From the NCBI GenBank assembly GCA_965261665.1, contig OZ253467.1, positions 1,217,926 through 1,281,925 of the forward strand: a stretch of DNA of 64,000 bases. Reading direction: 5' to 3'. Origin of the DNA: Dehalococcoidia bacterium (GTDB lineage: Bacteria; Chloroflexota; Dehalococcoidia; Lucifugimonadales; GCA-2712585). A program made the translations under genes and the position numbers. A model generated the notes under the pieces. The model was not told the origin of the DNA. It searched no databases and saw nothing but the letters and a program-made list of their open reading frames with translations. Numbering within the stretch: the stretch's first letter is position 1; every line of letters starts with the position of its first letter. This document shows, piece after piece, positions 1,976 to 63,687 of this stretch.

Positions 1976-2239
1976 GGACGGGCGCCCACAAGGGACGCCC
2001 CTACAGGGGATTGCTGAAGGTCTAGAGGGACGGGCGCCCACAAGGGACGCCCCTACAGGGGATTGCTGAAGGTCTAGAGGGACGGGCGCCCACAAGGGAC
2101 GCCCCTACGGGGGATTGCCGAAGGTCTAGGGGGATGGGCGCCCACAAGGGACGCCCCTACGGGGGAAGGGGAGTGGGAGAGGCGGATTTCTATGACGACG
2201 AGATCTCCCAAGGACGGGCGGTTCCCGAACCGCCCCTAC
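1976..2239 (+). repeat. tandem REP-like hairpin array (4 units of 52 bp plus one variant hairpin)
   Basis: GGGCGCCCACAAGGGACGCCCCTAC occurs at 1980, 2032, 2084 and 2136, each followed by a conserved tail (aggggattgctgaaggtctagag). GGGCGGTTCCCGAACCGCCCCTAC is at 2216-2239. Confidence 0.9.
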
Positions 2240-2290
2240 GAGAATGACATTTGGGGACGCTAGGCGCGGGATGGCATCCAGTTAAAGAGG

Positions 2291-2625
2291 GGGATGGGTC
2301 CCCGCATTCGCGAGGACAACGGAGGGGAGGGCGCCCACGAGGGACGCCCCTACAAGGGATTGCCGGGGTCAGAGGGACGGGCGCCCACAAGGGACGCCCA
2401 TACAAGGGATTGGCGGGGTTTAGAGGGACGGGCGCCCACAAGGGACGCCCCTACAAGGGATTGGCGGGGTTTAGAGGGACGGGCACCCACAAGGGACGTC
2501 CCTACAAGGGATTGCCGGGGTCTAGGGGGGACGGGCGCCCACAAGGGACGCCCCTACAAGGGATTGCCGAAGGTCTAGGGGGACGGGCGCCCACAAGGGA
2601 CGCCCATACAGGGGGATTGGCGGGG
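2291..2625 (+). repeat. tandem REP-like hairpin array (6 units of about 52 bp), preceded by a gggtccccgcaTTcgcgaggacaacgg element
   Basis: GGGCGCCCAC(A/G)AGGGACGCCC(C/A)TAC copies run from 2329 to 2609 with a conserved inter-hairpin tail. There are no unique spacers. Confidence 0.9.
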
Positions 2626-2913
2626 TTAGTCGGCCAGTTGGAATCGCTCCGACTTCGGCGGGCGGGACCATAGAGCGCCGGCGCCGGCCATGGCGGCGGA
2701 TCGCTCCGGGCTGGCGCGCCACTGATCGTAGATTTCGCTGCTCTCCCACGTGACTAGGGTCGTTATCTTCGTGGGGTCGGTGAGGGAATAGAGGGTCGTC
2801 CTCGCGCCGAAGCCCGGGGCTTGGCTCTGGGCGCGTCCGTTGCCCTCGAGCAGCCTTCGCGCCTCGTCGATTTTATCGTCCTTGGCCCAGTGGTGAGTCA
2901 AAACGCCAATCAT
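2626..2913 (-). CDS. antibiotic-biosynthesis-monooxygenase (ABM) domain protein
   Basis: 95-aa ORF of typical ABM size. The pattern is VLTHHWAKDDK...TLVTWESSEIYDQW. Confidence 0.7.
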   Translation of the reverse strand: MIGVLTHHWAKDDKIDEARRLLEGNGRAQSQAPGFGARTTLYSLTDPTKITTLVTWESSEIYDQWRASPERSAAMAGAGALWSRPPKSERFQLAD

Positions 2914-2949
2914 GTTTTCTCCTTTCGTCCGTGGGGTTGGGAATTCGGG

Positions 2950-3411
2950 TCACTTGGCCAGTAGGAATATGGCCCCACCGGCCAGAATGACGCCGGCTAT
3001 TCTTTCGATGCTTATGGGTTCCTTGAGGATGAGGAATCCGAGGACTGCAACTATGGCGATATTCATGCCGAAGAGGGGCGAAACGGTGGAGATGGGCCCC
3101 CGGCTAAGGGCCATGTACAGGCTGATGATGCCGATGCTCAGGGCGACGCCGGAGAGGACGAGGAAGAGGGTGGGTTGGTTGAAGGCCAGATGGTCCGTAA
3201 TCTTCACACCTCGGTAGAGGGCCCAGAGGAGGGCGGCGGCCACCAGAAAGAAGTTGGTCACGAATACGGCGGCTTCCGGCGGGATGCTCTTCAGGGAGAA
3301 CTTCAGCAGAATTATCATGACCGCGTATGCGGACATGGCGATTAGGGTCCAGACGATATAGTGCACCGGTCGACTCTCCTGCGTTGGCAGATTGCTGGCC
3401 CTATTGTACAT
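2950..3411 (-). CDS. small EamA-like (DMT superfamily) membrane protein
   Basis: 153-aa ORF that is almost entirely hydrophobic with 4-5 predicted TM helices. The family call is from memory of the pattern only. Confidence 0.6.
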   Translation of the reverse strand: MYNRASNLPTQESRPVHYIVWTLIAMSAYAVMIILLKFSLKSIPPEAAVFVTNFFLVAAALLWALYRGVKITDHLAFNQPTLFLVLSGVALSIGIISLYMALSRGPISTVSPLFGMNIAIVAVLGFLILKEPISIERIAGVILAGGAIFLLAK

Positions 3412-7136: not shown

Positions 7137-7235
7137 GACGGGTCATTGCATGACGGCAAGTTTTGCTATGTTGGGTGAGGGCTAGGTTGGCACTCGGGAT
7201 ATGGCGACGGGTCATTGCATGACGGCAAGTTTTGC
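7137..7235 (+). repeat. two 30-nt direct repeats containing the palindrome GTCAT-TGC-ATGAC
   Basis: gacgggtcattgcatgacggcaagttttgc occurs at 7137-7166 and 7206-7235. A partial extra copy of attgcatgacgg lies just upstream. The locus sits between two convergent gene ends. Confidence 0.85.
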
Positions 7236-7275
7236 AGCGTAGAGCCGTATCCCGGGTTGGCGTGAGATTCCAGGC

Positions 7276-7300
7276 GGGCGCCCACAAGGGACGCCCCTAC
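7276..7300 (+). repeat. solitary REP-like hairpin
   Basis: GGGCGCCCACAAGGGACGCCCCTAC. Confidence 0.9.
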
Positions 7301-7313
7301 GGTAGGGTTGTTG

Positions 7314-8705: not shown

Positions 8706-8846
8706 TCAATGCTGACGAGATTCTTCGCTGTGCTCAGAATGACAGGTGGTGGGCGCAGAATGACAGGTTGGGGGGTAGAGTGACAGTTGGGGTGCAGAGT
8801 GACATATGGGGTGGGCAGAGAGGGCGGGTTTGAAACCCGCCCCTAT
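8706..8846 (+). repeat. mosaic of a gagattcttcg...gaatgac element, about 20-bp tandem (c)aga(a/g)tgaca units x4, and a REP-like hairpin
   Basis: gagattcttcgctgtgctcagaatgac is at 8717-8743, followed by cagaatgacagg / agagtgacag / cagagtgacat units. GGGCGGGTTTGAAACCCGCCCCTAT is at 8822-8846. Confidence 0.85.
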
Positions 8847-14031: not shown

Positions 14032-14056
14032 GGGCGACCACGAGGGTCGCCCCTAC
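14032..14056 (+). repeat. solitary REP-like hairpin
   Basis: GGGCGACCACGAGGGTCGCCCCTAC has a perfect 8-bp stem. Its CTA (14053-14055) serves as the TAG stop of the minus-strand CDS 14053..15015. Confidence 0.9.
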
Positions 14057-15450: not shown

Positions 15451-15627
15451 GGATTCCTGCACCCGTCTTCATGGGGGGCAGGCTCTTCGTGGGAATGATG
15501 GGTGTGAGTTGGGAGGTTAGGGGGGTGACTTACGACGGGCGACCACGAGGGTCGCCCCTACAGGAGAGGGGGAAGGGTTCCCGCCCCCGTCTTCACGGGG
15601 GCAGGCTCTTCGCGAGAACAACGGAGG
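15451..15627 (+). repeat. composite repeat: GCCCCCG-hairpin element / linker / REP hairpin / GCCCCCG-hairpin element
   Basis: ggattcctgcacccgtcttcatggggggcaggctcttcgtgggaa; then gggaggttaggggggtgacttacgac; then GGGCGACCACGAGGGTCGCCCCTAC (15537-15561); then gggttcccGCCCCCGtcttcaCGGGGGCaggctcttcgcgagaacaacgg. The architecture matches the 133-bp unit at 57055-57650. Confidence 0.85.
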
Positions 15628-28937: not shown

Positions 28938-29170
28938 GTGGTGACGAGATTCCTCAAGGGACTTGGAATGACATGCAACGAGATTCTTCGGCTGCGCTCT
29001 GGATCACAGGTGTGTGATGAGGGAGAATGGGCAGGTTTGAAACCTGCCCCTACGGAGAAGGGGTTGGTGGATGTGAGGACATGGGAAAGATGGGTCCCCG
29101 CCCCCGTCCCCTGTCTGCACGGGGGCAAGCTTTCGACACGAGGGCAGGCTATGCGCGAGGACAAGGGGTG
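28938..29170 (+). repeat. mosaic of hairpin repeat families
   Basis: Two gagattc(c/t)tc...g(g)aat(g/c)ac elements are followed by GGGCAGGTTTGAAACCTGCCCCTAC (29029-29053) and a gggtccccGCCCCCGt...CGGGGGCaagc element (29089-29166). Confidence 0.85.
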
Positions 29171-31498: not shown

Positions 31499-32283
31499 GG
31501 GCGACCACAAGGGTCGCCCCTACAGAAGAGGGGACGGAGCGGCATGATGTTGGAGGGGGAAGGGTGGTTCACGAACCGCCCCTGCGGGGGGTTGGTCGCA
31601 CGGTCGCATGTAACGGGCGACCACAAGGGTCGCCCCTACGGGAAGGGGGGACGGAGTGGGATGATGTTTGAGGGAAGGGCGGTTCACGAACCGCCCCTAC
31701 GGGGGGTTGGTCGCACGGTCGCATGTAACGGGCGAGCACAAGGGACGCCCCTACGGGAAGAGGGGACGGAGAGGCATGATGTTGGAGGGGGAAAGGCGGT
31801 CCCCGAACCGCCCCTACGGGGGGTTGGTCGCACGGTCGCATGTAACGGGCGACCACAAGGGACGTCCCTACGAGAAGAGGGGATGGAGAGGCATGATGTT
31901 GGAGGGGGAAAGGCGGTTCCCGAACCGCCCCTACGGGGGGTTGTCGCACGGTCGCATGTAACGGGCGATCACGAGGGACGCCCCTATGGTAAGGGGGGAC
32001 GGAGTGGGATGACGTGGGAAGGGGAAGGGTGGTTCCCGAACCGCTCCTATGGGGGTTGGCCGCACGGTCGCATGTAACGGGCGATCACGAGGGACGCCCC
32101 TACGGGAAGAATGGACGGAGTGGGATGACGTGGGAGAGGAAAGGGCGGTTCCCGAACCGCCCCTACGGGGGGTTGGCCGCACGGTCGCATGTAACGGGCG
32201 ACCACGAGGGACGCCCCTACGGGAAGAATGGACGGAGTGGGATGACGTGGGAGAGGAAAGGGCGGTTCGGGAACGGCCCCTAC
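31499..32283 (+). repeat. higher-order tandem array: 7 units of about 116 bp, each with two different REP-like hairpins
   Basis: GGGCGACCACAAGGGTCGCCCCTAC-type hairpins start at 31499, 31615, 31730, 31847, 31963, 32079 and 32196. They alternate with GGG(C/T)GGTTC(A/C)CGAACCGCCCCTAC-type hairpins. The linkers are conserved (..acggagyggsatgatgttggaggg.. and ggggggttggtcgcacggtcgcatgtaac). Confidence 0.9.
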
Positions 32284-32393
32284 GAATTGCCAAGAACGTC
32301 GGCGTCAAGAGCATAGTGGCGGTCTATTTGCATAGTAATGGCGGGTATGGAGTTGTGAGGGGATTGGGCCGGAATTGCGGATGGGCCAGCTTG

Positions 32394-35893: not shown

Positions 35894-36559
35894 TTATAAC
35901 TCGTACTCTTTCAAGTCCTGCGCAACCTTTAACGTCGGCTCCGTCAGGGCCTGCACAGCCGCCGCCGTCCAATCGGGCGCGATCTCCCTCAGAATCATTC
36001 CTGCGGGCGTAACCTCTATCACCGCCAAGTCCGTCACCACCAGGCTTACGCACCCTCGCCCCGTCAGCGGAAACGTGCATTCTCTCACCACTTTGGGCCG
36101 ATTCCGACGGTCGGTGTGCTCCATCGCCACGATGACTCGCTTCGCCCCCACCGCCAGGTCCATCGCCCCGCCGATGTTTCCCACTCCTCTCTGCGGCAGC
36201 ATCCAGTTCGCCAGGTCGCCCCTCTCCGAGACCTGCAGCGCCCCCAGCACCGTAACATCGACGTGGCCCCCCCGAATCATCGCAAACGCCTCGTCCGACC
36301 CAAAGAAGGACATCCCGGGCACCCAACTCAGGAACTGCCCGCCCGCGTTGATTAAGTCGTAGTCCTTCTCGTAATCCTCCGCCAGCGGGCCGTAGTTCAG
36401 CACCCCGCTTTCGCTGTGATACGACACGGACTGCTCTCCCTCCAGGTAGTTGGACACCAGTGTAGGAATACCGATTCCCAGGTTCACCACCGCGTTGGCG
36501 GGCAGCTCCTTGGCCACCCGCATTGCGATTACGTCCCTCGGCAGACGCTCCTTATCCAA
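35894..36559 (-). CDS. 3-oxoacid CoA-transferase subunit B
   Basis: 221 aa with VNLGIGIPT, SESGVL (catalytic Glu region) and MGGAMDL motifs. Confidence 0.85.
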   Translation of the reverse strand: MDKERLPRDVIAMRVAKELPANAVVNLGIGIPTLVSNYLEGEQSVSYHSESGVLNYGPLAEDYEKDYDLINAGGQFLSWVPGMSFFGSDEAFAMIRGGHVDVTVLGALQVSERGDLANWMLPQRGVGNIGGAMDLAVGAKRVIVAMEHTDRRNRPKVVRECTFPLTGRGCVSLVVTDLAVIEVTPAGMILREIAPDWTAAAVQALTEPTLKVAQDLKEYEL

Positions 36560-36560
36560 G

Positions 36561-38012
36561 CTAAGCCTCCCCCACGGGCCGGAATGAGGAAAACCCCGCC
36601 GGGCGCTGTACTATCCTGTCCACGTACAGCCCAGGCGTCACCACTGCATCCGGGTCCAGCGTCCCCGCCTCTACAATCTCGTCCACTTCTGCTATCGTAA
36701 TCTCCGCCGCCGTGGCCATGGCAGCGTTGAAATTCCGCGACGTTCCCCGGTACACCAGGTTGCCCGCGGTGTCGGCCTTGTGCGCCCGGATGAAGGCGAA
36801 GTTCCCACGAATCGCCCGCTCTAATACGTACTCCCGCCCGTCGATTATCTTTGTTTCCTTGCCCTCCGCCACCACCGTGCCTGCTCCCGTGGGCGTGAAA
36901 AACGCCGGAATCCCTGCGCCCCCCGCCCGGAGCCGTTCCGCCAGCGTCCCCTGTGGCGCTAACTCCAACGTAACCTCGCCCCTCCGATACGCCTCCTCGA
37001 AGGCCGAGGGCCTCGATGGTGAGGGGGATACGGGGAAGGAAGCTATTGCATGCTTTATCTGCCCACGCTCTACCAGAATGCTGTGGTCGATGGCCTGCAG
37101 CCCTGGCGAAGGCGGCTGGCCGAACGTGGACACCCGCGCGATACCCACCGTGTTGCCGACCACCGTCAACTCCCGCGCCCCCTGGTCCCGCAGCGCCAGC
37201 ATCAGATAGTGCGCCATCCCTCCTATTCCCCCGAACCCGTCCATCAGAATAACCGCGCCGTCGGGGATGTCGGCCACTGCCGCCGCGGCGCTGGGAAACA
37301 CCTTGCTCAGAGGAGACTCCTCCAGAACGCCGAAGTCCATCTCCTTCACCGGCTCCGTCACGTCTAGCCGGGCTTCCGTTTCCGACTGAATCTCCGCCGC
37401 CGACCACCCCGGCGCTCGTTCTTTCAGGACCAGGCCCTCCGCGGTGACTTCAATGACGGCGATGTCTGTGACGATGAGATTTACCCGTCCGGCCACCGTC
37501 AACGGGTAGTCGCACCGTCGGAGAATCTTGGGCGCGCCCCTGTTGGAATGCTCCATAATGGCTATCAGCCGCTTTGCGCCGGCGGCCATGTCCAGACCCC
37601 CGCCAGGACTGCCGATTCCCTTGCTGGGAACCATCCAGTTTGAAAGGTCGCCCCGCTCCGATACCTGCAATGCTCCCAAGACCGCCACGTCCAGACGACC
37701 GCTGCGGACGATGCTGAAGGCGTCGGTATGACTGATTACGGCGCCCCCCGGATGCCAGGTAGTATGCTCACCGCGGGCGTTGATGAAATCCAGGTCCTCG
37801 GCTCCCTCCTCCGCATGAGGCCCGTATCGCAGAATTCCGTTCTCCGAGTGAAGAACGACTCCCCGACTCGCCGGCACGTAGTTTGCCACCAGCGTTGGCA
37901 TTCCGATGCCCAGGTTTACGACTTCCCCCGGCCGCAGCTCCGCCGCCACTCGCAGGGCCATCAACTCCCGGCTTAGCCTCTCAGCCATCTCACCCTCATC
38001 CTCCGACCACAA
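36561..38012 (-). CDS. fused CoA-transferase: subunit B domain (N-terminal) joined to subunit A domain (C-terminal)
   Basis: 483-aa continuous ORF. Residues 1 to about 215 carry the B pattern (VNLGIGMPT, SENGIL, PGGGLDM). From about residue 235 the A pattern appears (KVFPSAAAAVADIPDGAVILMDGFGGIG ... GAGIPAFFTPTG). No stop or start lies between the two domains. Confidence 0.8.
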   Translation of the reverse strand: MWSEDEGEMAERLSRELMALRVAAELRPGEVVNLGIGMPTLVANYVPASRGVVLHSENGILRYGPHAEEGAEDLDFINARGEHTTWHPGGAVISHTDAFSIVRSGRLDVAVLGALQVSERGDLSNWMVPSKGIGSPGGGLDMAAGAKRLIAIMEHSNRGAPKILRRCDYPLTVAGRVNLIVTDIAVIEVTAEGLVLKERAPGWSAAEIQSETEARLDVTEPVKEMDFGVLEESPLSKVFPSAAAAVADIPDGAVILMDGFGGIGGMAHYLMLALRDQGARELTVVGNTVGIARVSTFGQPPSPGLQAIDHSILVERGQIKHAIASFPVSPSPSRPSAFEEAYRRGEVTLELAPQGTLAERLRAGGAGIPAFFTPTGAGTVVAEGKETKIIDGREYVLERAIRGNFAFIRAHKADTAGNLVYRGTSRNFNAAMATAAEITIAEVDEIVEAGTLDPDAVVTPGLYVDRIVQRPAGFSSFRPVGEA

Positions 38013-38670
38013 TCCGGTTAACGTATATCCCGGGCGTAACCACCCGCTCCGGGTCTATCTCTCCTACCTCAACCACCTCCCGCACCTCCGCGACAGTAGT
38101 CTTTGCGGCGGCAGCCATCGTGGGATTGTAGTTTCGCTGCGCGAGCCTGTACGTCAGGTTGCCCAGCCTGTCGGCCTGATGCCCGCCAATCAGGGCTAAG
38201 TCTGCTCCCAGGGGCGACGCTAGGACATACTCCCTGCCCTCAAACGATTGGGTGTCCTGCTCCTCGAACACGGTGCCTACGTAGTTGGGGACGTAGACGC
38301 TGCCCAATCCCGCACCTGCCGCCCGCATCCTCTCTGCCAGAATCCCCTGCGGCACAACCTCCACCTCCAGCTTTCCCTTGCGCCACAACTGCAGGGCCGG
38401 AATTTCCTGGTTGGGCCGCCCGAAGAAGGTTGTTATCAGCTTTCGGACCTGCCCGCGCTCCACCAGGCGGGCGACGTCATACTCGCCGGGCTTCGGCTCG
38501 AAGCAGGTGTTGCAGATGAACGTCAGATTCCGAGGCCCCAACTCCATGAGCGCCTTCACCAAACTCTGAGGCAGGCCAGGCTTGCCGAAGCCACCCAGCA
38601 TGATGACGGCTCCGTCGGACACGTCCTCCAACGCCTCAACCGCTGACGAATAGACCTTCCCATGAGCCAT
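37996..38670 (-). CDS. 3-oxoacid CoA-transferase subunit A
   Basis: 224 aa: KVYSSAVEALEDVSDGAVIMLGGFG..., QGILAERMRAAGAGLG. Confidence 0.85.
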   Translation of the reverse strand: MAHGKVYSSAVEALEDVSDGAVIMLGGFGKPGLPQSLVKALMELGPRNLTFICNTCFEPKPGEYDVARLVERGQVRKLITTFFGRPNQEIPALQLWRKGKLEVEVVPQGILAERMRAAGAGLGSVYVPNYVGTVFEEQDTQSFEGREYVLASPLGADLALIGGHQADRLGNLTYRLAQRNYNPTMAAAAKTTVAEVREVVEVGEIDPERVVTPGIYVNRIVVGG

Positions 38671-38798
38671 AGCAGGCGATTCCCCCCAACAACGCTGACC
38701 GCATTCTACCAGCCCCCGCCCCTCCTAGAAACACCACTACCCACCCCGTATACACTGCCAGCCCTTCTGATGCCGCGCGTCATTCTCTAAAGTCACAT

Positions 38799-38837
38799 GT
38801 CATTCTGATCGCAGCGAAGCGGAGTCGAGGAATCTCG
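38799..38837 (-). repeat. gtcattctga...gaatctc short repeat (opposite orientation to the copies at 8717, 46989 and 59155)
   Basis: gtcattctgatcgcagcgaagcggagtcgaggaatctcg. Confidence 0.8.
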
Positions 38838-39072
38838 TGGCACGCCCTCATATTTCATACACGAACTCCCAGCCTCCTCTCCAGTTGGACCATCCCGTGA
38901 AGCGTTTTGGCTCCATGATCGTCGCACTGAGGCAGTTGATAGCCGAAGAAGAGGCCGACATAATAGAACATGGACGGGAATTGGTCGCCTATGGGCTCCT
39001 AGTTATCGTACAAAGGCTTACACTCCATCCCCCTCATAATTTTTGCAATTCTAGAACCACGAAAGGAGCCTC

Positions 39073-39393
39073 ATGTCCATCTCCACTGCACCGCAAATGT
39101 TCATTCCTGCATACATTAGTCGTGTACCTGAAACCTCCGGCGTCTATGCGCTGAATGACGGCTTTAACATCATCTACTACGGCAGCGCCGAACATTCCAT
39201 CAGAGATAGTCTTATGGGTCATCTCAATGGCAAAGACGGTCCTTGCTCACAAAGAGCAATATGGTTCCTCTACGAAACAACGTCATCGCCGATAAAGAGA
39301 GAAAAAGAGCTGCTGGCCGAATTCCAGCAAGACTTCGGCAGACTCCCTGAATGCAACGAGGAGGCCTCACCCACCCTGGAAGAAGACAGCTAA
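39073..39393 (+). CDS. small GIY-YIG domain protein
   Basis: 106 aa: SGVYALNDGFNIIYYGSAEHSIRDSLMGHL gives GIY...YIG spacing with the following Arg. It lies in a lower-GC stretch. Confidence 0.6.
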   Translation: MSISTAPQMFIPAYISRVPETSGVYALNDGFNIIYYGSAEHSIRDSLMGHLNGKDGPCSQRAIWFLYETTSSPIKREKELLAEFQQDFGRLPECNEEASPTLEEDS

Positions 39394-39444
39394 CCCCCTC
39401 TTGTTCCTGCGAAGGCAGGAATCCACTCCTCTCCCACTCCACCC

Positions 39445-39555
39445 GTCATTCCGGCGAAAGCCGGAATCCAGACCCCACATTAGCCATGCCCTTTGTGCTC
39501 CCCACGACGCTAACCAAAACCCCACCGGTGGGGGCGGGTTTCAAACCCGCCCATT
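39445..39555 (+). repeat. gtcattccggcgaaagccggaatccag hairpin plus a degenerate REP-like hairpin
   Basis: 39445-39471 holds the stem CCGGC-gaaa-GCCGG. GGGCGGGTTTCAAACCCGCCC is at 39532-39552, followed by ATTC instead of CTAC. Confidence 0.8.
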
Positions 39556-39717
39556 CCCTCCCAATCTCATCATCACACGATCCGAAATCATCCTGAAACG
39601 AACGCGAAATGAAACCCTCCATTTTGACCACTTTCACGCCTAATATCCGGAAATGAACTTGAAATAAACTCGGATATACTCACCGCGTCCAATTTACGAT
39701 GTACCGCCCGTAAAGGC

Positions 39718-40218
39718 TCAGATAGCGGACACGGAAATAGCCACACCCTCCTCCCTTGGGTGCGATGTGTCCGGTAAGCGATGAATAAGCAACGTCCGAA
39801 AGTTGGAGTCGTCGTAATTCCAATGCTGTAAGGTGAAGGGATCTGTGCCATCCGAGCAAAACAATCCGGCGGCCACGGAGTCAAGAACGGGCTTAATGAA
39901 ATTCTCAACGTCCAGCTTGGCCTGGCCGCCCACCTTCCGATTACCGTGGTTCGACGGATGGAACGCCATCCCTAGCGAAATTGTGTACTGGAGAGTCTCG
40001 CTCCAAGAGCCTTCTCCTCGAACGGCCTTCACCTCCGAAGTTACCCAACGCTTCCAGTCCTTCTGCCCTGCTGTGTTCTCCGTGATACTGTTGATGATGT
40101 TTCCCCTCACTAGAGTGCACAGCCTCATCCTAGATTCAGCGAACTCAACAATAGGCACGTCCCATCCCCCTATGCTCTCTACCCGATACATAAGCTCACA
40201 CCTCACCATCTCTGTCAT
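39718..40218 (-). CDS. hypothetical protein with RusA-like Holliday-junction resolvase motif
   Basis: 166 aa. KLDVENFIKPVLDSVAAGLF....DD resembles the RusA D-x-(D/E)-N-x-x-K-x-x-x-D-x-(L/V) core. This is a weak assignment from memory only. Confidence 0.35.
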   Translation of the reverse strand: MTEMVRCELMYRVESIGGWDVPIVEFAESRMRLCTLVRGNIINSITENTAGQKDWKRWVTSEVKAVRGEGSWSETLQYTISLGMAFHPSNHGNRKVGGQAKLDVENFIKPVLDSVAAGLFCSDGTDPFTLQHWNYDDSNFRTLLIHRLPDTSHPREEGVAISVSAI

Positions 40219-40326
40219 TCAAAACCTCCTAATCTTGTTGTGAGCGCAACGAAGAATCTCGTCACCTCTACCAATCAGCATGGGCCTATCCCTTCCCCCC
40301 TTGTCAATCCTCTCCCCCTCCCCCCC

Positions 40327-40365
40327 AAAAAGAGGGGCGGCCCTGTGTGGGCCGCCCCTCTTTTG
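40327..40365 (-). terminator. intrinsic terminator downstream of groEL (bidirectional-looking)
   Basis: A perfect 13-bp stem AGAGGGGCGGCCC-tgtgt-GGGCCGCCCCTCT is flanked by A5 on one side and T4 on the other, 36 nt after the groEL stop. Confidence 0.8.
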
Positions 40366-40400
40366 TTTGCGCTCTTTTTAGGAAGCGGAAACTTTCTTGT

Positions 40401-42032
<1,632 letters not shown>

Positions 42033-42084
42033 TCAAAATTTCTGAATAAATGGGTTCGAAATCCGTGGCGATATGTCGTCCAGC

Positions 42085-42378
42085 CTATCTGTTAACCTTG
42101 GCCAGAACGTCGCTCTCCCGCAGAATCAGGTACTCCTGACCATCGTCCTTGTACTCGGTGCCTGCGTATTTGGAATAGATGATCCTATCCCCGGTCTGTA
42201 TCTCCATGGGTACGCGCGCACCTTCGTCTGTGACCCGGCCGGGTCCCACCGCCACAACCTCACCCTCCTGCGGCTTCTCTTTGGCAGTATCCGGAAGGAT
42301 TATTCCTGATGATGTGGTCTGTTCCTCCTCCAGTGGCTTGACTATCAACCTCTCTCCTAAAGGCGTGAATTTCACCAA
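42085..42378 (-). CDS. groS: co-chaperonin GroES
   Basis: 97 aa: [43 protein letters not shown]. Confidence 0.95.
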
Positions 42379-42435
42379 CGCTTCCTCCTCAAATTTTGGT
42401 TGTTTTGGGTCTGTCTACATTATTATGACTACTAA

Positions 42436-42462
42436 ATTAGCAGTCAAATCAATAGAGTGCTA
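42436..42462 (-). promoter_or_regulatory. CIRCE operator (HrcA binding site)
   Basis: TTAGCAGTC-N9-GAGTGCTAA versus the consensus TTAGCACTC-N9-GAGTGCTAA (1 mismatch). It sits between the promoter and groES. Confidence 0.85.
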
Positions 42463-42472
42463 AAACCTCGCT

Positions 42473-42502
42473 TATGATAGACTACGTCCTGAATGCTGTC
42501 AA
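42473..42502 (-). promoter_or_regulatory. sigma70-type promoter of groES-groEL
   Basis: On the minus strand: TTGACA (42497-42502), a 17-nt spacer, then TATCAT (42473-42478), immediately upstream of CIRCE. Confidence 0.75.
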
Positions 42503-42557
42503 TAGACCAATTTTTCAGCGAAAATCGTAACCCCAAGGCCTTGTATTCCATTTACTA

Positions 42558-43343
42558 ATGTTGATTCGGAAACTTATCCTGCTCGAAATGCATGACGCCG
42601 TGGCCGTCATTCGCGTTGATCTGCTGGACGACGACGACGACGACACCCGAAATCCGTCGCCGGCCGAGGAGATTGAAAGCGTCTGCCAATTACTGAATGA
42701 AGACGCGAACCTTCGAGCCGTCGTCCTCACCAACACCGGAGGAAACTTCTGGTCCGAGGACGTCAAACCCTGGCCCCAGGACACGCCCGTTAGCGACCCA
42801 GAATCGGTCCTCCAACGTCGACGCGTTGCAACCCACGTGGCCAACCTCAAGGTTCCAACCATCGCCGCCATCCAGGGTCGAGCGTGGAATCAGGGCTTGG
42901 AACTCGCCCTCGGCTGCGACCTGCGATTGGCGGCAGAAGGGTCAACCTTCGGTTTCTCATGTCTGGTCGAAGGATACATTCCTTGGGACGGCGGCTCCCA
43001 GAGACTGCCACGGCTCATCGGACGCACCCGGGCTCTGGAGCTTCTTCTCACGGGCCGTTCCGTTTCTGCATCGGAGGCCCACGAAATGGGGCTGGTCAAT
43101 ACCGTCACTTCCGGCCAAACTTTGGAGGCTACTGCTATCGATCTGGGTCAGACCATCGCCGCCGCCGCTCCAATTGCGGTGCGCTACGTCAAAGAGGCGG
43201 TCTACAAGGGCCTTGATATGTCCTTGGCGCAAGGGCTGAACCTGGAGGCCGACCTTAGCTTCATCCTTCAGACCACCCAAGACCGCCGTCGTGGGATTCA
43301 AGCCTTCCTCAATAAGAAGAAACCGCAATTTACAGGAGAATGA
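42558..43343 (+). CDS. enoyl-CoA hydratase/isomerase (crotonase) family protein
   Basis: 261 aa with AAIQGRAWNQGLELALGCDLRLA, a GGSQRLPRLIG pattern and a C-terminal RRGIQAFLNKKKPQF. Confidence 0.85.
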   Translation: MLIRKLILLEMHDAVAVIRVDLLDDDDDDTRNPSPAEEIESVCQLLNEDANLRAVVLTNTGGNFWSEDVKPWPQDTPVSDPESVLQRRRVATHVANLKVPTIAAIQGRAWNQGLELALGCDLRLAAEGSTFGFSCLVEGYIPWDGGSQRLPRLIGRTRALELLLTGRSVSASEAHEMGLVNTVTSGQTLEATAIDLGQTIAAAAPIAVRYVKEAVYKGLDMSLAQGLNLEADLSFILQTTQDRRRGIQAFLNKKKPQFTGE

Positions 43344-45454: not shown

Positions 45455-46075
45455 GTTGGGTGGGGGTGCTACGGGATGGCGTGGGGGAACGGGCGGTTCG
45501 CGAACCGCCCCTACCAGATGGTTGTCAGAGGGAATGGGGGATGGGTCCCCGCATGCGCGAGGACAACGGAGGGGAGGGGGCGATGGGTGAGGCGGGACGT
45601 GATGGCGGGGGGAACGGGCGGTTCGCGAACCGCCCCTACCAGATGGTTGTCAGAGGGAATGGGGGATGGGTCCCCGCATGCGCGAGGACAACGGGGGAGG
45701 GGGGCCGATGGGTCGAGGCGGGACGTGATGGCGGGGGGAACGGGCGGTTCGCGAACCGCCCGTTCCAGATGGTTGTTAGAGGGAATGGGGGATGGGTCCC
45801 CGCATGCGCGAGGACAACGGGGGGAGGGGGGCCGATGGGTCGAGGCGGGACGTGATGGCGGGGGGAACGGGCGGTTCGCGAACCGCCCGTTCCAGATGGT
45901 TGTTAGAGGGAATGAGGGGATGGGTCCCCGCATGCGCGAGGACAACGGAGGGGAGGGGGCGATGGGTGAGGCGGGACGTGATGGCGGGGGGAACGGGCGG
46001 TTCGCGAACCGCCCGTTCCAGATGGTTGTCAGAGGGAATGAGGGGATGGGTCCCCGCATGCGCGAGGACAAGAGG
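45455..46075 (+). repeat. higher-order tandem array: 5 units of about 126 bp (REP hairpin plus gggtccccgcatgcgcgaggac element)
   Basis: GGGCGGTTCGCGAACCGCCC starts at 45491, 45616, 45742, 45869 and 45995. It is followed by CTAC or GTTC, then cagatggttgt(c/t)agagggaatg(a/g)gggatgggtccccgcatgcgcgaggacaa. Confidence 0.9.
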
Positions 46076-54483: not shown

Positions 54484-54550
54484 AGGGGATGGGTCCCCGC
54501 ATGCGCGAGGACACGGGGAGGGGGACGGGCGGTTCGCGAACCGCCCGTAC
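54484..54550 (+). repeat. gggtccccgcatgcgcgaggac element plus REP-like hairpin
   Basis: ggggatgggtccccgcatgcgcgaggacac, then GGGCGGTTCGCGAACCGCCCGTAC (54527-54550). Confidence 0.9.
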
Positions 54551-56440: not shown

Positions 56441-56522
56441 GGGCGGTTCCTGAACCGCCCCTACACGTTGCCTAGGGGTGGCGTGGCTGATGGGAGAGGG
56501 CAGGTTTGAAACCTGTCCCTAC
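56441..56522 (+). repeat. two REP-like hairpins
   Basis: GGGCGGTTCCTGAACCGCCCCTAC (56441-56464) and GGGCAGGTTTGAAACCTGTCCCTAC (56498-56522). Confidence 0.9.
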
Positions 56523-56696: not shown

Positions 56697-56915
56697 ATGA
56701 ACGAGAAGCCCAGTGTTCCACTAATAAGAGATATTCTCATACACCTCCCTGTTGGATTCGCCGCCGGAGTCATCAGTGGTGTGATCAACGGCATGCTGAA
56801 CGACGACCTGACTTTCGGCGGTTTGCTTGTTCACACCGTTATCTTCGGGGCGATTTTTGGCGCAGCTTATGGTTATGCGAATAACCGGTGGTTTCGGAAG
56901 AGAAGAAGTAAGTAG
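56697..56915 (+). CDS. small 2-TM hypothetical protein
   Basis: 72 aa with two Gly-rich hydrophobic segments, a basic C-terminus and a GGAG-type RBS upstream. Confidence 0.4.
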   Translation: MNEKPSVPLIRDILIHLPVGFAAGVISGVINGMLNDDLTFGGLLVHTVIFGAIFGAAYGYANNRWFRKRRSK

Positions 56916-57054
56916 GCAGGATGGTGGGTGCTTTATGGTCACTCACCAGATGACTAGCTAGCAGCCCCATTTCACCCTCCTTCCTAATGTGCGTGGGTGG
57001 TCCTATTTTTTGCGGCTCAGAACCCGGGTGAGAAGTTGGGGTAAGGATAATGAG

Positions 57055-57729
57055 ATTCTTCGTCTTCACAAGGGCGGGCTCTGCGCGGGAACAACGGAAG
57101 GGGGCGGGAGGTTAGGGGGTGTCTTAAGACGGGCAGCCACAAGGGCTGCCCCTACGGATAGGGGGGGAAGGAGCGAGGAGGGGTTCCGGCCCACGTTTTC
57201 ACAAGGGCAGGCTCTGCGTGGGAACAACGGGTGGGGGCGGGAGGTTAGGGGGTGTCTTAAGACGGGCAGCCACAAGGGCTGTCCCTACGGATAGGTGGGC
57301 GAAGGAGCGAGGAGGGGTTCCGGCCCCCGTCTTCATGGGGCGGGCTCTGCGCGGGAACAACGGAAGGGGCCGGGAGGTTAGGGGGTGTCTTAAGACGGGC
57401 AGCCACAAGGGCTGCCCCTACGGATAGGGGGGTGAAGGAGCGAGGAGGGGTTCCTGCCCCCGTCTTCACTGGGGCAGGCTCTGCGCGGGAATAACGGAGG
57501 GGGGAGGGAGGTTAGGGTGTGTCTTAAGACGGGCAGCCACAAGGGCTGCCCCTACGGATAGGGGGGCGAAGGAGCGAGGGTGGGTTCCCGCCCCGTCTTC
57601 ACGGGGGGGCAGGCTCTGCGCGGGAACAGCGGAGGGGGCAGGATGACAGGTGGGAGGGCGTTGACGAAGTGACAGAGGAGTGAGGATAGGGTGTCGATGA
57701 TGGAGGGCAGGTTTCAAACCTGCCCCTAT
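57055..57729 (+). repeat. higher-order tandem array: 4-5 units of about 133 bp (GCCCCCG-hairpin element plus REP hairpin), then one extra REP hairpin
   Basis: GGGCAGCCACAAGGGCTG(C/T)CCCTAC starts at 57131, 57264, 57397 and 57531. It alternates with ggttcc(g/t/c)gcccccgtcttca(c/t)ggggcaggctctgcgcgggaa(c/t)aacgg. GGGCAGGTTTCAAACCTGCCCCTAT is at 57705-57729. Confidence 0.9.
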
Positions 57730-59154: not shown

Positions 59155-59227
59155 GAGATTCTTCGACTCCGCTTCGCTACGCTCAGAATGACATGTGGGG
59201 GCGCTTTGCTGCGTTCAGAATGACATG
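59155..59227 (+). repeat. gagattcttcg...gaatgac short repeat with a partial tandem second tail
   Basis: gagattcttcgactccgcttcgctacgctcagaatgac, then gcgttcagaatgacatg. Confidence 0.8.
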
Positions 59228-59402
59228 AACCGGATGGTATGACAAGGGGAAAGCTAGGTGGAGGAAGAGTATGGGGTGACGTTTTTGGTCGCCAAGAGCC
59301 ACTGGATGACATGTTAAGGAATTCACGGGACCCGTGGAGTGGGGAAAAGGGAGAGCGGGCCAATTAGCCCGCTCGTACGGAAATCGTAGATCTACTTTGC
59401 TG

Positions 59403-59842: not shown

Positions 59843-60298
59843 TTAAGACCGCAGAGGCATAATCTCGGACAGGAGTTGGGACAACGACTCCGAATTGCGA
59901 GTTTGGCATTCCCAGACAATCACCACCTGCCATTCTTTAAGGCGGAGCTCATTGTAATTCTTCTTCGCCCTTGAGATGTTGCGGTCGAACTTTTTCCGCC
60001 AGTAGTCTATGTTTGTTCTTGGAGTAGAAGCCTGTTTGCAACCCGGGTGCCTATGCCAGAAGCAACCATTGACAAATACCGCTGTACGATGCTTTCGCAG
60101 GACGATGTCCGGGGTGCCCGGCAGTGATTTCACGTGGAGCCTGAAGCGGAATCCGGCACGATGGAGGATTGAACGCACACGAATTTCCGGACTTGTGTCT
60201 TTGCTGCGGACCCGACTCATTACCCAACTGCGATATTCGCGCGACTCGGGGTTCCGCTTGGTCTCACTATGGGCAACTAGGCTTGAATCTGAATCCAC
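59843..60298 (-). CDS. vsr: very-short-patch repair endonuclease
   Basis: RSWVMSRVRSKDTSPEIRVRSILHRAGFRFRLH...PGTPDIVLRKHRTAVFVNGCFWHRH. Confidence 0.9.
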   Translation of the reverse strand: MDSDSSLVAHSETKRNPESREYRSWVMSRVRSKDTSPEIRVRSILHRAGFRFRLHVKSLPGTPDIVLRKHRTAVFVNGCFWHRHPGCKQASTPRTNIDYWRKKFDRNISRAKKNYNELRLKEWQVVIVWECQTRNSESLSQLLSEIMPLRS

Positions 60299-61011
60299 GA
60301 ATCCTCGTAATTAATATTGGTCAATATGGTTTCAGGGTCGACAACTGGCACTTGAGGCGCAATCGAAAATCTGCGCGCTGAACTTGGCACATCTCGAATC
60401 ACAGTAAATTGGCTTCCATGAGGCTGCCAAGTGAAGCGGTGAACACCGTTAGACTTGTCGGTACCCCACAAAGTACCTCGATGATTGAATTCCCAGCTGT
60501 AGTTCGAATTAACGAATCTCCGAGCTTCATCCTCGAAAAGCAGGAATTCCCTGTTGGCCATGTTTCTTACCAAAACGGCTATCCTAAGGTCGTTGAATTC
60601 GTCTAAAGCTTCATTGACCCTGGCATTCCAAATGTCCAGAACCGCTTTTCCGGTTTTATTGGCACTGGCGCGCGGGTCTGAAATTCCATGTGAATAGTCA
60701 GGAGAGTTTCGGCCGGAAATCAGTCGTACGGTTTTTGTCGAAAAAGGCTTTGCGGACTTGACTATTTTCAGGGACCAAGCGCACCGTTGGAGAAAAACGT
60801 CTGCAATACCTAAAGGAGTAGCTCTGTCAATGCCACCAACGGCTTTGGCGAAGAACTCGTCAAATTCCCCGGAACGCAAGTCGCGAAATCCGACTGCAAG
60901 CCTGTGGACAATTTGCTTGCCTAGCTCAAGGAGTACGGAATCGGGTATCTGTCCAAGTTCGTACGGTCCAGTGCGACGTTTCCGCTGGCCTCGTAACCGC
61001 GTCTTCCTCAA
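60277..61011 (-). CDS. putative type II restriction endonuclease (partner of the C5-methyltransferase)
   Basis: 244-aa ORF between dcm-like and vsr on the same strand with overlapping ends. A possible PD-(D/E)xK-like core is IADV...AWSLKIVK. No family was recognised and the start is uncertain. Confidence 0.5.
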   Translation of the reverse strand: MRKTRLRGQRKRRTGPYELGQIPDSVLLELGKQIVHRLAVGFRDLRSGEFDEFFAKAVGGIDRATPLGIADVFLQRCAWSLKIVKSAKPFSTKTVRLISGRNSPDYSHGISDPRASANKTGKAVLDIWNARVNEALDEFNDLRIAVLVRNMANREFLLFEDEARRFVNSNYSWEFNHRGTLWGTDKSNGVHRFTWQPHGSQFTVIRDVPSSARRFSIAPQVPVVDPETILTNINYEDSWIQIQA

Positions 61012-62032
61012 TTACCTTCACCACCTGCTCAATAACTGCCTGAACCATCGGAACAGGCACGGCGTTGCCAGCCTGCTTCCGGGTTTGAGAGTCGTTGCAA
61101 AGTATTTGCCATGAATCCGGGAATCCCTGTAATCGCAGCAATTCCCGGGGCGTCGGGCGACGTTCGCCGTCTAAAAGCAAGTAATTGTAAGAAGCATTCG
61201 CTCGCAAGGCGCAAGACCATTCGTGACTCGAAATGTTGCCACCCTTATTTTCGTGCCAGATTGCGGGAGATACTGACGCGGAATGAGCCGCCTTGCGCTT
61301 AGCGCGAATCTTCTCTGATGCGAAGTGCTTTGGGTCCGGATTCGGTTCCAAGAGATCCGCCAACGGGCGCATTGGCATTTGTTCCTCTGGCCACTGGAAT
61401 CTTGTGAACGGGACTTGGGTGGCGACGATAATTGTCCGCTCTCGTTTTTGTGGAAGTCCGAAGTCTAGAGCGTTCAGCACCTTGGACTCAACTGTATACC
61501 CGAGGTTGTGGAGGTCAGTAATGATGCGAAGCAACACTTGCCCTCTCTGAGCGGTCGACAGTTGCTTCACATTTTCCAGGACAATTCCCTGAGGGCGTTT
61601 CGCTTGGATTACTCGCAGAATCTCAAAAAATAATGTCCCCCTAGGGTCTTCAAAACCTTTCCGTTGACCGATAATGGAGAAGGGTTGGCACGGAAAGCCG
61701 GCGAAAAGCAAATCGTGGTCTGGCACGTCGGAGGCGTCCAAAGCCGCAATGTCACCTGCGGGTTCAAGTGCAAAGTTGTGCTCGTATGCTTTCCGAGTCT
61801 CTGGATCTATGTCACACGCAAAGACGACATCAAGACCCAAGTTGCGGGCGGCTACGTGGAATCCACCGATGCCGCTAAAGAAATCCGCACACCTTAGCGG
61901 CAATTTGTCGTCTGCAACTGGAAACTCCAGCAACGCAGTTGCGTGGTTTGCTGCATGGCCGTTGCTTCGCACGGCATCCTCCACTTCATCAAGCCTCTGT
62001 TGGATGATATATCTTGCATTCCGAGCCGTCAA
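60926..62032 (-). CDS. DNA (cytosine-5)-methyltransferase
   Basis: Motif I is DFFSGIGGF, motif IV GFPCQPFS, motif VI LENV, motif VIII QKRERTIIV and motif X GNAVPVPM. Confidence 0.92.
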   Translation of the reverse strand: MTARNARYIIQQRLDEVEDAVRSNGHAANHATALLEFPVADDKLPLRCADFFSGIGGFHVAARNLGLDVVFACDIDPETRKAYEHNFALEPAGDIAALDASDVPDHDLLFAGFPCQPFSIIGQRKGFEDPRGTLFFEILRVIQAKRPQGIVLENVKQLSTAQRGQVLLRIITDLHNLGYTVESKVLNALDFGLPQKRERTIIVATQVPFTRFQWPEEQMPMRPLADLLEPNPDPKHFASEKIRAKRKAAHSASVSPAIWHENKGGNISSHEWSCALRANASYNYLLLDGERRPTPRELLRLQGFPDSWQILCNDSQTRKQAGNAVPVPMVQAVIEQVVKVIEEDAVTRPAETSHWTVRTWTDTRFRTP

Positions 62033-62093
62033 GGGGTTTTCTTACAAAGGTTCGGATGCGTTTTCCTATTAGGCTTTGCATGCGTAGTGGGGG

Positions 62094-63512
62094 TTAGCGG
62101 ACGGGGCCGCCGAGGGGGGGAGTGGGGCTACCGCTGGCGAGGAAGCGTCCGTAGCCGGGTTTTTGCTCGAGGCGTCCCTGGTTGAGGAGGACTTGGCCCC
62201 GGAGCAGGGTCATCCAGGGCTTGCCGTTGACCTTCCAGCCCTCGTAGAGGGTGAATCCTGAGTTGCCGTGGTGGTCTTCGGCGCGTACTACGGTTTCGCC
62301 TTGGGGGTCGATGATGGTGATGTCGGCGTCGGTGCCGACTTGGAGGGAACCCTTCTGGGGGTAGAGACCGAAGATGCGGGCGGGGTTTTCCGACATGCAG
62401 CGGGCCAGCCATGTGATGGGGAGGTCGCGACCGACGACGCCTTCGCTGTAGGCGAGGGGGGCTAGGGTCTCGATGCCGGGGGAGCCGAAGGGGACGGGAC
62501 TGCCGTCGGGGTTGACGAAGATATTTTTCCAGCCGGGCTGCTTGAGGGCCTTGAAGTGGGGAGCGTGGTCGCTGCCGATGGTGGAGATGTAGCCAAGCTC
62601 AAGGCCCTTCCACATGGCTGGCTGGTCGGGGCCGTCCTTGGGACGGAGGGGCGGGCCGATTTTCGCAAGGGGGCCGACTTTGGCCATTTCCTCGTCGGAC
62701 AGGAGGAGATACTGTGGGCAGGTCTCGGTCCAGACTCGTTGGCCCTGGCCCTGGGCCTGTTTGATTCGCTCCATGCCAACATCGGTGCTGAGGTGGACGA
62801 CGTAGACGGGGCAGTTGGTTACGTTGCCCATTTTGATGGCGCGGTTTATGGCTTCTTCTTCGGCCCAATCGGGGCAAGCGGAGGGAAAGTCGGTGGGGTG
62901 GACACAGCCCTGGCTGATGAGCTGGTTCTCGAGATAGTCGATGATGTTGCCGCTTTCGCAGTGGAGCTGGACGATGCCGCCGCCCTTGGAGACGGTCTCC
63001 ATAACCTGGCAGATGAAGTCGTCGGTGCACATTCGAATCTGGTTTTTCTTGTATGACATAAACATCTTGAAGGAGGTGACGCCCATTTCCAAGGCCTGAG
63101 GGAGGCTCTTGAGGATGTAGGGGCGGTTGTTGAGGATATAGTGGAAGGCGAAATCGACCACGGCGGTGGACTCGATTTCTTCGCGGTGGCGGTTGATGGC
63201 AGAGGGGAGAGTCTCTTCGGCCTCAACGTCGTAGGTGCCAAAGGGCAGGAGGGTGGTGAGGCCGGAATGGGCTGCAGCGATGGAGCCGAGCTCATAAGAA
63301 TCGCAGCGGTCGAGGTGGACGTGACAGTCGATGAGGCCAGGGAGGACGAACTTGCCGGAGGCGTCGATATAGCGGTCGGCGGGAGGGAGAAGGTGATCGG
63401 GGCCAATGGCGACTATCTTCTCGTCTGAAATGGCTATGGCGGCGTCGAAGACTTCGGAAGAGGTGACGATTTTTCCGCCGGCGATGATGGTGTCGACTCT
63501 GATGTCTGGCAT
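62094..63512 (-). CDS. cyclic amidohydrolase (dihydropyrimidinase/hydantoinase/dihydroorotase-like)
   Basis: 472 aa: DTIIAGGKIV...DASGKFVLPGLIDCHVHLD, a later FKMFMSYK, and GSDHAP. Confidence 0.85.
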   Translation of the reverse strand: MPDIRVDTIIAGGKIVTSSEVFDAAIAISDEKIVAIGPDHLLPPADRYIDASGKFVLPGLIDCHVHLDRCDSYELGSIAAAHSGLTTLLPFGTYDVEAEETLPSAINRHREEIESTAVVDFAFHYILNNRPYILKSLPQALEMGVTSFKMFMSYKKNQIRMCTDDFICQVMETVSKGGGIVQLHCESGNIIDYLENQLISQGCVHPTDFPSACPDWAEEEAINRAIKMGNVTNCPVYVVHLSTDVGMERIKQAQGQGQRVWTETCPQYLLLSDEEMAKVGPLAKIGPPLRPKDGPDQPAMWKGLELGYISTIGSDHAPHFKALKQPGWKNIFVNPDGSPVPFGSPGIETLAPLAYSEGVVGRDLPITWLARCMSENPARIFGLYPQKGSLQVGTDADITIIDPQGETVVRAEDHHGNSGFTLYEGWKVNGKPWMTLLRGQVLLNQGRLEQKPGYGRFLASGSPTPPLGGPVR

Positions 63513-63606
63513 GATGTGCCTCCTGGGGGGATGGGGCTATTATAGGGCAGAATGGGAAGGTTGGCACGTTTGGGGTGGCAGGGGGGTAGTGTGGGGAGAG
63601 TAAGAC

Positions 63607-63687
63607 GGGCGCCCACGAGGGACGCCCCTACGGGGGATGTGTTCATGGGTTGTAGAGGGGGAAGGGCGGTTCGCGAACCGCCACTAC
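63607..63687 (+). repeat. two REP-like hairpins
   Basis: GGGCGCCCACGAGGGACGCCCCTAC (63607-63631) and GGGCGGTTCGCGAACCGCCACTAC (63664-63687). Confidence 0.9.

Follow-up and report, generated by a model that had tools for sequence, protein, structure and literature searches.

Uniformly Oriented GTAG-Type Repetitive Extragenic Palindromes in a Strand-Asymmetric Region of a Dehalococcoidia Genome

Repeats of the Window

The window analyzed here, 64,000 nucleotides from the genome of a Dehalococcoidia bacterium (contig OZ253467.1, forward-strand positions 1,217,926 to 1,281,925), has a G+C content of 60% and carries Pfam-supported genes on both strands, about 25 on the + strand and about 22 on the - strand. 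Its intergenic DNA contains many short hairpins that are GTAG-type repetitive extragenic palindromes (REPs), and the orientation of these REPs is the subject of this report. They consist of a GGGC...GCCC stem with a loop of 4–5 nt, and CTAC abuts the foot on the 3' side on the + strand; the complementary - strand of each hairpin has the order by which GTAG-type REPs are defined, 5'-GTAG-hairpin. The REP type itself is known; unusual here are REPs that occur without inverted pairs and are uniformly polarized along the strand asymmetry of the chromosome.

Six sequence families are present in the window, with the foot and tail common to all:

Family A: GGGCGCCCACAAGGGACGCCC, followed by CTAC
Family B: GGGCGGTTCNNGAACCGCCC; the copy at 2216 is GGGCGGTTCCCGAACCGCCC followed by CTAC
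Family C: GGGCAGCCACAAGGGCTGCCC, followed by CTAC
Family D: GGGCGACCACGAGGGTCGCCC, followed by CTAC
Family F: GGGCAGGTTTGAAACCTGCCC, followed by CTAC
Family G: GGGCGGGTTTGAAACCCGCCC, followed by CTAT

Folded as DNA, the REPs form stems of 8–9 bp with free energies of -9 to -11 kcal/mol. In the source lineage, 16 variants of the A/C/D class all have the same foot (GGG/CCC), loop, and CCTAC, and their stem pairs 5-17 and 6-16 alternate between G-C and A-T on both sides. Pairing is found in 90.6% of cells, compared with 41–56% when partners are slid, and none of 500 shuffles reached the observed values; the stem is maintained through compensatory changes. The central base of the loop (TTTGAAA versus TTTCAAA) was rejected as a marker of orientation, as both forms occur in copies oriented on the + strand (57705 in the window; 4120 and 17582 in the related locus L128).

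The sites are as follows, with the strand of the hairpin-CTAC reading:

1967..2166, +: four family-A REPs (1980, 2032, 2084, 2136), a head-to-tail array of 52-bp units
2216..2239, +: single family-B REP
2299..2322, +: CGTT-type hairpin of a second family, TCCCCGCATTCGCGAGGACAACGG; the - strand reads 5'-CCGTTG-hairpin
2325..2626, +: six family-A REPs, a head-to-tail array of 51-bp units; two have the decayed tail CATAC
7276..7300, +: single family-A REP between convergent hexapeptide transferase (+) and ROK kinase (-) genes
8822..8846, +: single family-G REP (CTAT tail) between the rpiB and DUF3179 genes, both on -
14032..14056, +: single family-D REP, its tag overlapping the TAG stop of the - strand open reading frame (ORF) 14053-15015
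15537..15561, +: single family-D REP downstream of a - strand dihydroorotate dehydrogenase gene (tandem -)
29029..29053, +: single family-F REP between convergent genes
31499..32284, +: head-to-tail array of 6.8 composite 117-bp units (REP D/A, linker, REP B, linker) between two + genes
39527..39552, -: REP of opposite polarity, GGTGG and GGGCGGGTTTCAAACCCGCCC, then ATTC
45471..46071, +: head-to-tail array of 4.8 units of 126 bp (REP B and CGTT-type hairpin) between two + genes
54494..54550, +: CGTT-type hairpin (54494), then family-B REP with decayed GTAC tail (54527), between two + genes
56441..56522, +: family-B REP (56441) and family-F REP (56498), head to tail
57061..57729, +: head-to-tail array of 4.4 units of 133 bp with four family-C copies; family-F REP with CTAT at 57705
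63607..63688, +: family-A REP (63607) and family-B-like copy with an ACTAC tail (63664), upstream of a - strand amidohydrolase gene

Five head-to-tail arrays, with periods of 52, 51, 117, 126, and 133 bp, hold many of the copies. In the array at 45471..46071 the first two REPs carry CTAC and the last three are untagged GAAC...GTTC palindromes; the array at 57061..57729 lies upstream of the 3' end of a prpD-like gene on the - strand. At 14053-14056 the GTAG tag of the family-D REP provides ORF 14053-15015 with its TAG stop codon.

Orientation of the REPs

Three counts were made on both strands. A search with GGGACGCCCCTAC, allowing up to two mismatches, gave 26 matches against 2.9 expected, 25 of them on the + strand; the single - strand match lies within a gene and is not a hairpin. 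Folding of the 34 nt upstream of every CTAC yielded 30 hairpins with CTAC on the + strand (27 REPs and three chance matches within genes) and two on the - strand, both unrelated, both within genes, and neither a REP. A strand-symmetric hairpin caller returned 39 hairpins with GGGC/GCCC feet, 36 of them REP-type. The 3' tail is an exact CTAC in 26 of the 36 and differs from it by one mismatch in six (CTAT, ATAC, or GTAC); three are untagged symmetric palindromes (GAAC...GTTC at 45742, 45869, and 45995), and one, at 39532, has a 5' GTGG head and a 3' ATTC.

The window thus holds at least 36 REPs at 12–13 intergenic sites, a density of about one site per 5 kb, with none inside Pfam-supported genes. 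Because many copies sit in head-to-tail arrays, the site rather than the copy is the fair counting unit; by this measure 28 called REPs fall at 12 separate sites on the + strand and none on the - strand (two-sided binomial p ~5e-4). Inverted REP pairs, the organization known from bacterial interspersed mosaic elements (BIMEs) and REP doublets forming hairpins (REPINs), were found neither in the window nor in its relatives, which contain only singletons and head-to-tail arrays.

The original prediction for this DNA held that all of the hairpins share one orientation, that every copy has CTAC on its 3' side, and that no copy with a 5' GTAG lies on the + strand. The last point is borne out by the strand-symmetric calls, in which 5' GTAG on the + strand occurs in 0 of 36 (the head at 39532 being GTGG). 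A shared orientation is found at all 12 sites and fails at 39532, which is probably inverted and ends in ATTC; CTAC is present on most of the copies named, the others having a degenerate tag (CTAT at 8822, GTAC at 54527, ACTAC at 63664) or, in the last three units at 45.5–46.0 kb, none.

Gene Context

REP sites lie between convergent genes (1980-2609, 7276, 14032, 29029, and 56441-57729), between tandem + genes (31499-32284, 45471-46071, and 54527), and between tandem - genes (8822 and 15537; in relatives, L125 and L129). In relatives they also occupy divergent promoter spacers (L128 at 6.6–11.1 kb, L129 at 2.8–3.4 kb); in L128 a 4.5-kb spacer filled with REPs separates dnaX and sdhA. The orientation is the same in all four contexts, which upholds the earlier claim that it is not linked to transcription. 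The tandem - context had been illustrated with 8822 and 63607; it is confirmed for the first and found again at 15537, and the gene neighboring 63607 lies beyond the window.

These contexts bear on the possibility that the hairpins act in RNA, as terminators or 3' mRNA stabilizers of the upstream gene, with their orientation a by-product of gene direction. Many sites do lie at the 3' ends of genes or between convergent genes, and REPs of Escherichia coli are known to stabilize upstream mRNA (PMC3733652). The orientation is nevertheless identical after + and - genes (8822 and 15537; L125 and L129) and in divergent spacers (L128 and L129), with genes split about evenly between the strands. What follows each hairpin is CTAC and G-rich DNA, not the T-run expected of an intrinsic terminator, and an Rfam scan of the window gave a single match at the gathering score, a tRNA (24874-24945), and no RNA family at the REPs. 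The gene contexts exclude transcription-level roles, and we regard an origin of the polarity in RNA function as extremely improbable.

Strand Asymmetry

The + strand of the window has a GC skew of 0.14–0.31 per 4 kb, except at 36–44 kb. Genes on + have a GC3 skew (the skew at third codon positions, read on the + strand) of +0.29 and those on - one of +0.53; T exceeds A for both, and the GC3 skew reaches 0.7 in single genes of the window and of the related loci L124–L129. Since genes of both strands have the same sign, the asymmetry belongs to the DNA strand and not to transcription. This excess of G and T is the usual leading-strand signature; that the G-rich strand is the leading strand is assumed from general knowledge. 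The cumulative skew is monotonic apart from one segment, consistent with the earlier suggestion that the window lies in a single replichore. This exceptionally strong skew is accompanied by essentially no gene-strand bias, with about 64 genes on the G-rich strand and 70 on the other in the five loci sampled, a combination unusual for bacteria.

Mutational decay was considered as a cause of the polarity, CTAC on the C-depleted strand eroding to CTAT and CATAC. It predicts that the opposite tag should survive, and was ruled out because the C-containing tag sits on the C-depleted strand.

The segment of reversed asymmetry provides an internal control:

35894..43343: reversed asymmetry over 7.5 kb, with three CoA-transferase genes, groES/groEL, and an enoyl-CoA hydratase gene

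Genes of both strands here have GC3 skews between -0.17 and -0.23, and for this reason the segment appears to be an old inversion whose composition has yet to re-equilibrate. Strains 93–96% identical to the window (L120–L123 and L130) have the same arrangement. Transcription-driven skew was rejected for 36–43 kb, as the enoyl-CoA hydratase gene on the + strand is also reversed in GC3 and the intergenic repeats there are inverted. The sole REP within the segment is that at 39532; with GT[AG]G at its head on the + strand and CTAC absent, it is opposite in polarity to the others and most likely an inverted copy. An all-against-all comparison of intergenic DNA in the window gave 143 direct and 26 inverted high-scoring segment pairs, the inverted ones being palindromic stems or pairs involving the spacer at 38.7–39.7 kb.

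Related Genomes

GroEL matches on contigs 93–96% identical to the window identify close strains, and the named neighbors, at 86–88%, are Dehalococcoidia and SAR202-cluster bacteria; from these neighbors the host is taken to be an uncultured Dehalococcoidia/SAR202-related bacterium. Further loci were found by a protein-database search with the translation of a REP array, through the spurious ORFs that it matched. This gave four independent related loci, L124 (with orthologues L126, L127, L251, and L252), L125, L128, and L129, besides the window's own region (L130). The arrays in these loci are on the + strand by construction. Unconstrained by the search are the local skew, which could have had either sign, and the remaining REP sites of the 20-kb flanks, which could have pointed either way. 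Both agree in all four loci, and the skew sign agrees in five of five when the window is included.

Each 20-kb related locus contains 7–26 REP copies. In the window, L124, L125, L128, and L129 together, hairpin-CTAC falls on the G-rich strand for 88 copies, against three exceptions; these are two double-foot copies (GTAG...CTAC; L128 3068-3092 and L129 10379-10405) and one unrelated hairpin. Orientation is independent of transcription and coupled to strand asymmetry in every sampled locus. The link to the DNA strand made in the original prediction is therefore supported by the window, by its skew-inverted segment, and by four other loci.

The same pattern might be ascribed to chance, to ascertainment, or to local tandem duplication of a few founders: most copies lie in the five arrays, where orientation is shared by construction, and the related loci were found through ORFs on the CTAC strand. 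We consider this about as improbable as an RNA-level origin. All 12 window sites agree and represent six REP families, and about 18 further sites in the four other loci follow them, some of the copies lying outside the ascertained arrays; the skew sign, which was not ascertained, agrees throughout, and the one exception lies in the skew-inverted segment.

Among strains 93–96% identical, the same spacers carry unrelated REP families, always with the same polarity. In L121 and L122, for example, the spacers flanking a short-chain dehydrogenase gene have been replaced wholesale and hold different REP families in the same polarity, and array lengths differ among the close strains L124, L126, L127, L251, and L252. 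Some spacers (window 46964-47328 compared with L121 and L122) are wholly nonhomologous between genes 93–95% identical and are mosaics of small repeat modules, which indicates that intergenic DNA turns over wholesale and very fast.

Other Repeat Families

The REPs are not the only polarized repeats. Copies of the second hairpin family, TCCCCGCATGCGCGAGGACAACGG, have the layout of a CGTT-tagged REP when the - strand is read (reverse complement CCGTTG-TCCTCGCG-CATG-CGGGGA); they are all on + in the window and 24 to 0 across the lineage. The third family is nonpalindromic, a 44-bp module of the form GAGATTCTTCGACTCCGCT...CTCAGAATGACATGTG with a recurrent AGAATGACA motif. Its copies outside the inverted segment are all on + (10797-10839, 28980, 46989, 54446, and 59155-59229), and one lies within it:

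38794..38836, -: third-family copy inside the inverted segment

Tandem 19-mers at 8735-8813 are listed with the third family.

A 123-bp element with terminal inverted repeats (TIRs), GGAGACCTTTGCATA, is present in two copies, 10916-11038 and 31152-31274. Both sit exactly in the 4-nt loop of a CGTY-tagged hairpin and have 4-bp target duplications (ATGC in TCCCCGC|ATGC|GCGAGGA and CTTC in TTCCCGC|CTTC|GCGGGAA), resembling insertion sequence (IS) elements that target REP loops. The two copies are opposite in internal orientation, 20 kb apart on the same strand background, a minor exception to any general constraint on how repeats are oriented.

Such a constraint could arise from selection on chromosome architecture. 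Inverted repeats within a replichore would promote inversions that place DNA on the wrong strand, and only direct arrangements of copies would survive; copies on opposite replichores would be inverted relative to each other and would give only the tolerated inversions symmetric about the origin-terminus axis. Polarization of at least three unrelated repeat families is what a general constraint would produce, misoriented DNA may be costly where strand asymmetry is so extreme, and no inverted REP pairs occur in this lineage though the same REPs pair in inverted orientation in other phyla. Single REPs of about 25 bp are, however, too short for efficient homologous recombination, and inversions appear to be tolerated, given that the 7.5-kb skew-inverted segment persists in all related strains; the TIR element in both orientations is a further difficulty. 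Selection on architecture also leaves unexplained why the tag that persists is the one disfavored by mutational bias. We judge it an unlikely explanation, the strongest of the alternatives.

REPs of the Same Sequence in Other Phyla

REPs are commonly regarded as specific to a species. Families A and D nevertheless have exact 25-mers in at least 119 stretches of metagenome-assembled genomes (MAGs) from many phyla (Chloroflexota, Acidobacteriota, Latescibacterota, Gammaproteobacteria, Bacteroidota, Planctomycetota, and others), often as inverted pairs with a second REP family. A metagenome scan found family B equally widespread, and exact 25- to 28-nt sequences of A, D, and B are common to MAGs of more than ten phyla. 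Such identity across phyla suggests either strong constraint from a conserved subclass of REP-associated tyrosine transposases (RAYTs) or horizontal spread.

In five loci of other genomes (L033, L079, L104, L116, and L117) a REP lies beside a RAYT gene or in frame inside it. The best matches of these five genes are NF047646 (REP-associated tyrosine transposase) and PF01797, and the family to which they belong has more than 2000 members (2042 matches), many of them named RayT. The leads came from tblastn at E<5 with an approximate E. coli RAYT sequence as query, which gave nothing at E<1e-3, and were confirmed with NCBIfam and Pfam. The in-frame REP sequence lies just after the HUH motif in L104 (~7189-7800, -; NHVHGIVRIVGATLVVAP) and in L116 (1701-2384, +; VGAPLVGARP). 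Because identical 25-mers lie beside or inside RAYT genes, the window hairpins are canonical GTAG REPs.

A further possibility is that the REPs are polar signals for the loading, pausing, or orienting of a strand-asymmetric machine such as a translocase, a helicase/nuclease, or the replisome, in the manner of the FtsK-orienting polar sequences (KOPS) or Chi, with orientation relative to fork movement fixed by selection. Orientation tracks strand asymmetry and not genes, the sites are dense, and the families do not differ in foot, loop, or tail but co-vary in the mid-stem, as for a recognized structure. RAYT recognition explains the same invariance, though, and identical REPs are unpolarized in other phyla. 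The copy number per site varies among close strains and spacers are replaced wholesale, which has the look of selfish turnover, and no candidate reader protein was identified. We think a signal of this kind improbable, more so than selection on architecture.

Comparison with Known Systems

KOPS, Chi, and architecture-imparting sequences are polar motifs skewed toward the leading strand, 8 nt in length, which also occur inside genes and have known reader proteins. The window elements are like them in an orientation that is independent of genes and would be fixed relative to the direction of replication, and differ in being intergenic hairpins with mobile-element hallmarks and rapid turnover.

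The nearest relatives are the REPs, BIMEs, and REPINs of E. coli, Pseudomonas, and Stenotrophomonas, which likewise are GC-rich imperfect palindromes of 20–25 nt with a GT[AG]G 5' foot, are intergenic and present in many copies, have several families per genome, and form tandem clusters with linker DNA (PMC2817692, PMC3333891, PMC3116915, PMC3733652). GTAG families rich in singletons and head-to-tail copies are already known (PMC3733652). The window lineage differs in the absence of inverted pairs, in a uniform orientation over at least 64 kb tied to strand asymmetry, and in having no RAYT gene in its sampled DNA (the window and ~190 kb of related loci). No report of replication-polarized REPs was found in the literature searched.

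As a class, the REPs have the features of the REPtrons of TnpA_REP subclass 2.4 (Quentin et al. 2018, PMC6006769), an assignment based on the REPs and not on a RAYT of the source genome. Shared features are three G-C foot pairs, double-foot copies (L128 and L129), a scattered distribution across many phyla, and REP insertion in tnpA_REP between HuH and Y (L104 and L116). That study covers REPs around the transposase gene and does not report replication-strand polarity. The second hairpin family of the window resembles the CGTC-tagged REP superfamily (Di Nocera et al. 2013, PMC3733652) in having a CGTY tag at the 5' foot; relatives with the exact CGTC tag adjoin GTAG REPs in other Dehalococcoidia loci (L039, L069, and L096). 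The window family differs in its CGTT tag and in being polarized like the GTAG REPs, which is not known to have been described.

The IS200/IS605 family (IS608, ISDra2) offers a precedent for polarity. As summarized from Ton-Hoang 2010 (PMC3333891, PMC6006769, and PMC3971601), these elements have hairpin ends preceded on the 5' side by a 4-nt guide, are processed by a Y1 HUH enzyme that uses a single strand, and are biased in orientation relative to replication genome-wide; the coupling of the REPs to strand asymmetry in five of five loci would be the counterpart of that bias. Excision and insertion take place at the lagging-strand template, and the active, guide-bearing strand of IS608-type elements has the G-rich sequence of the leading strand (PMC3333891, PMC3971601). 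The window elements are 25-nt hairpins without a transposase gene, and in all loci their 5'-GTAG strand is C-rich and A-rich, a comparison that assumes the G+T-rich strand to be leading. On that assumption the sign speaks against the IS200/IS605-type transposition offered in the original prediction as a possible model, the polarity here being opposite to that of IS608-type elements; a replication-linked mechanism, if there is one, would not simply follow the IS608 rule.

A Possible Replication-Linked Explanation

A replication-linked mechanism acting on single-stranded DNA is plausible. RAYT binds single-stranded REP DNA through the 5' tetranucleotide, and Ton-Hoang et al. speculated on the use of lagging-strand single-stranded DNA by REPs (PMC3333891). 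Our preferred explanation, to which we give about an even chance, is that REP polarity in this lineage is locked to the DNA strand through a replication-linked process. Differential retention is its most likely version, favored over IS608-like insertion because the polarity is the reverse of that of IS200/IS605. Where the 5'-GTAG strand of a copy falls on the exposed lagging-strand template, that copy would be excised and lost; the protected orientation would accumulate and then expand locally by tandem amplification. Its broadest form, a strict coupling of REP dissemination or survival to the fork throughout the lineage, with GTAG and CGTY REPs both oriented by replichore and polarity opposite to IS200/IS605, we put forward tentatively and with distinctly less than even confidence.

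Several observations weigh against this explanation. The reversal of sign relative to IS200/IS605 makes an extra assumption necessary, namely, that the dynamics are dominated by loss. The window and ~190 kb of related loci contain no gene for a RAYT or other Y1 transposase, and no contig of the source lineage is among the best 120 of 2042 RAYT homologues. REP orientation is unrelated to skew in other phyla; in a Latescibacterota locus (L073, OZ242195.1, 3,888,001-3,896,000), seven dispersed REPs share one orientation with the opposite sign, in a region with a skew of -0.2 to -0.39, and the polarity there has the IS200/IS605-like sign. At least three unrelated repeat families are polarized alike, for which a general selective constraint could suffice without a transposase. 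Only five loci are independent, and as four of these were found via ORFs along the CTAC strand, the skew sign alone is independent evidence. Gene orientation (about 64 versus 70 genes) does not corroborate the equation of G-rich with leading strand.

The explanations differ in what they imply for the rest of the chromosome. If the polarity flips at the origin and terminus of replication, REP dynamics are tied to the replication fork, and the sign reversed with respect to IS200/IS605 then argues that loss from the exposed strand dominates over targeted insertion. If there is no flip, selection on repeat orientation in an extremely strand-asymmetric chromosome is indicated. RAYTs cleave and join REP DNA in vitro, and no pathway of mobilization in vivo is known. 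Strict fork coupling, if true, would be the first genomic evidence of strand-specific processing of RAYT-type elements in vivo. The model unit of the field is a symmetric inverted pair, which hides any strand preference; single, asymmetric, polarized units expose it directly.

Other Features

A protein with an IS110-family transposase domain (P0024, PF02371) has a REP-encoded peptide in common with an array ORF, a hint that a related contig carries an IS110-type element adjoining a REP or within one.

Some genes of the window are without skew, among them two restriction-modification islands, and these genes probably are recent acquisitions. The island at 24874-27421 encodes an N6/N4 methylase and an NgoMIV-like endonuclease directly after a tRNA gene, and that at 59843-62032 encodes Vsr, an ORF of no assigned role, and a C5 cytosine methylase.

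A 455-amino-acid ORF without a Pfam match (32438-33805) contains 2.8 copies of a 264-bp internal tandem repeat (32846-33574) and has the same length in all related strains.

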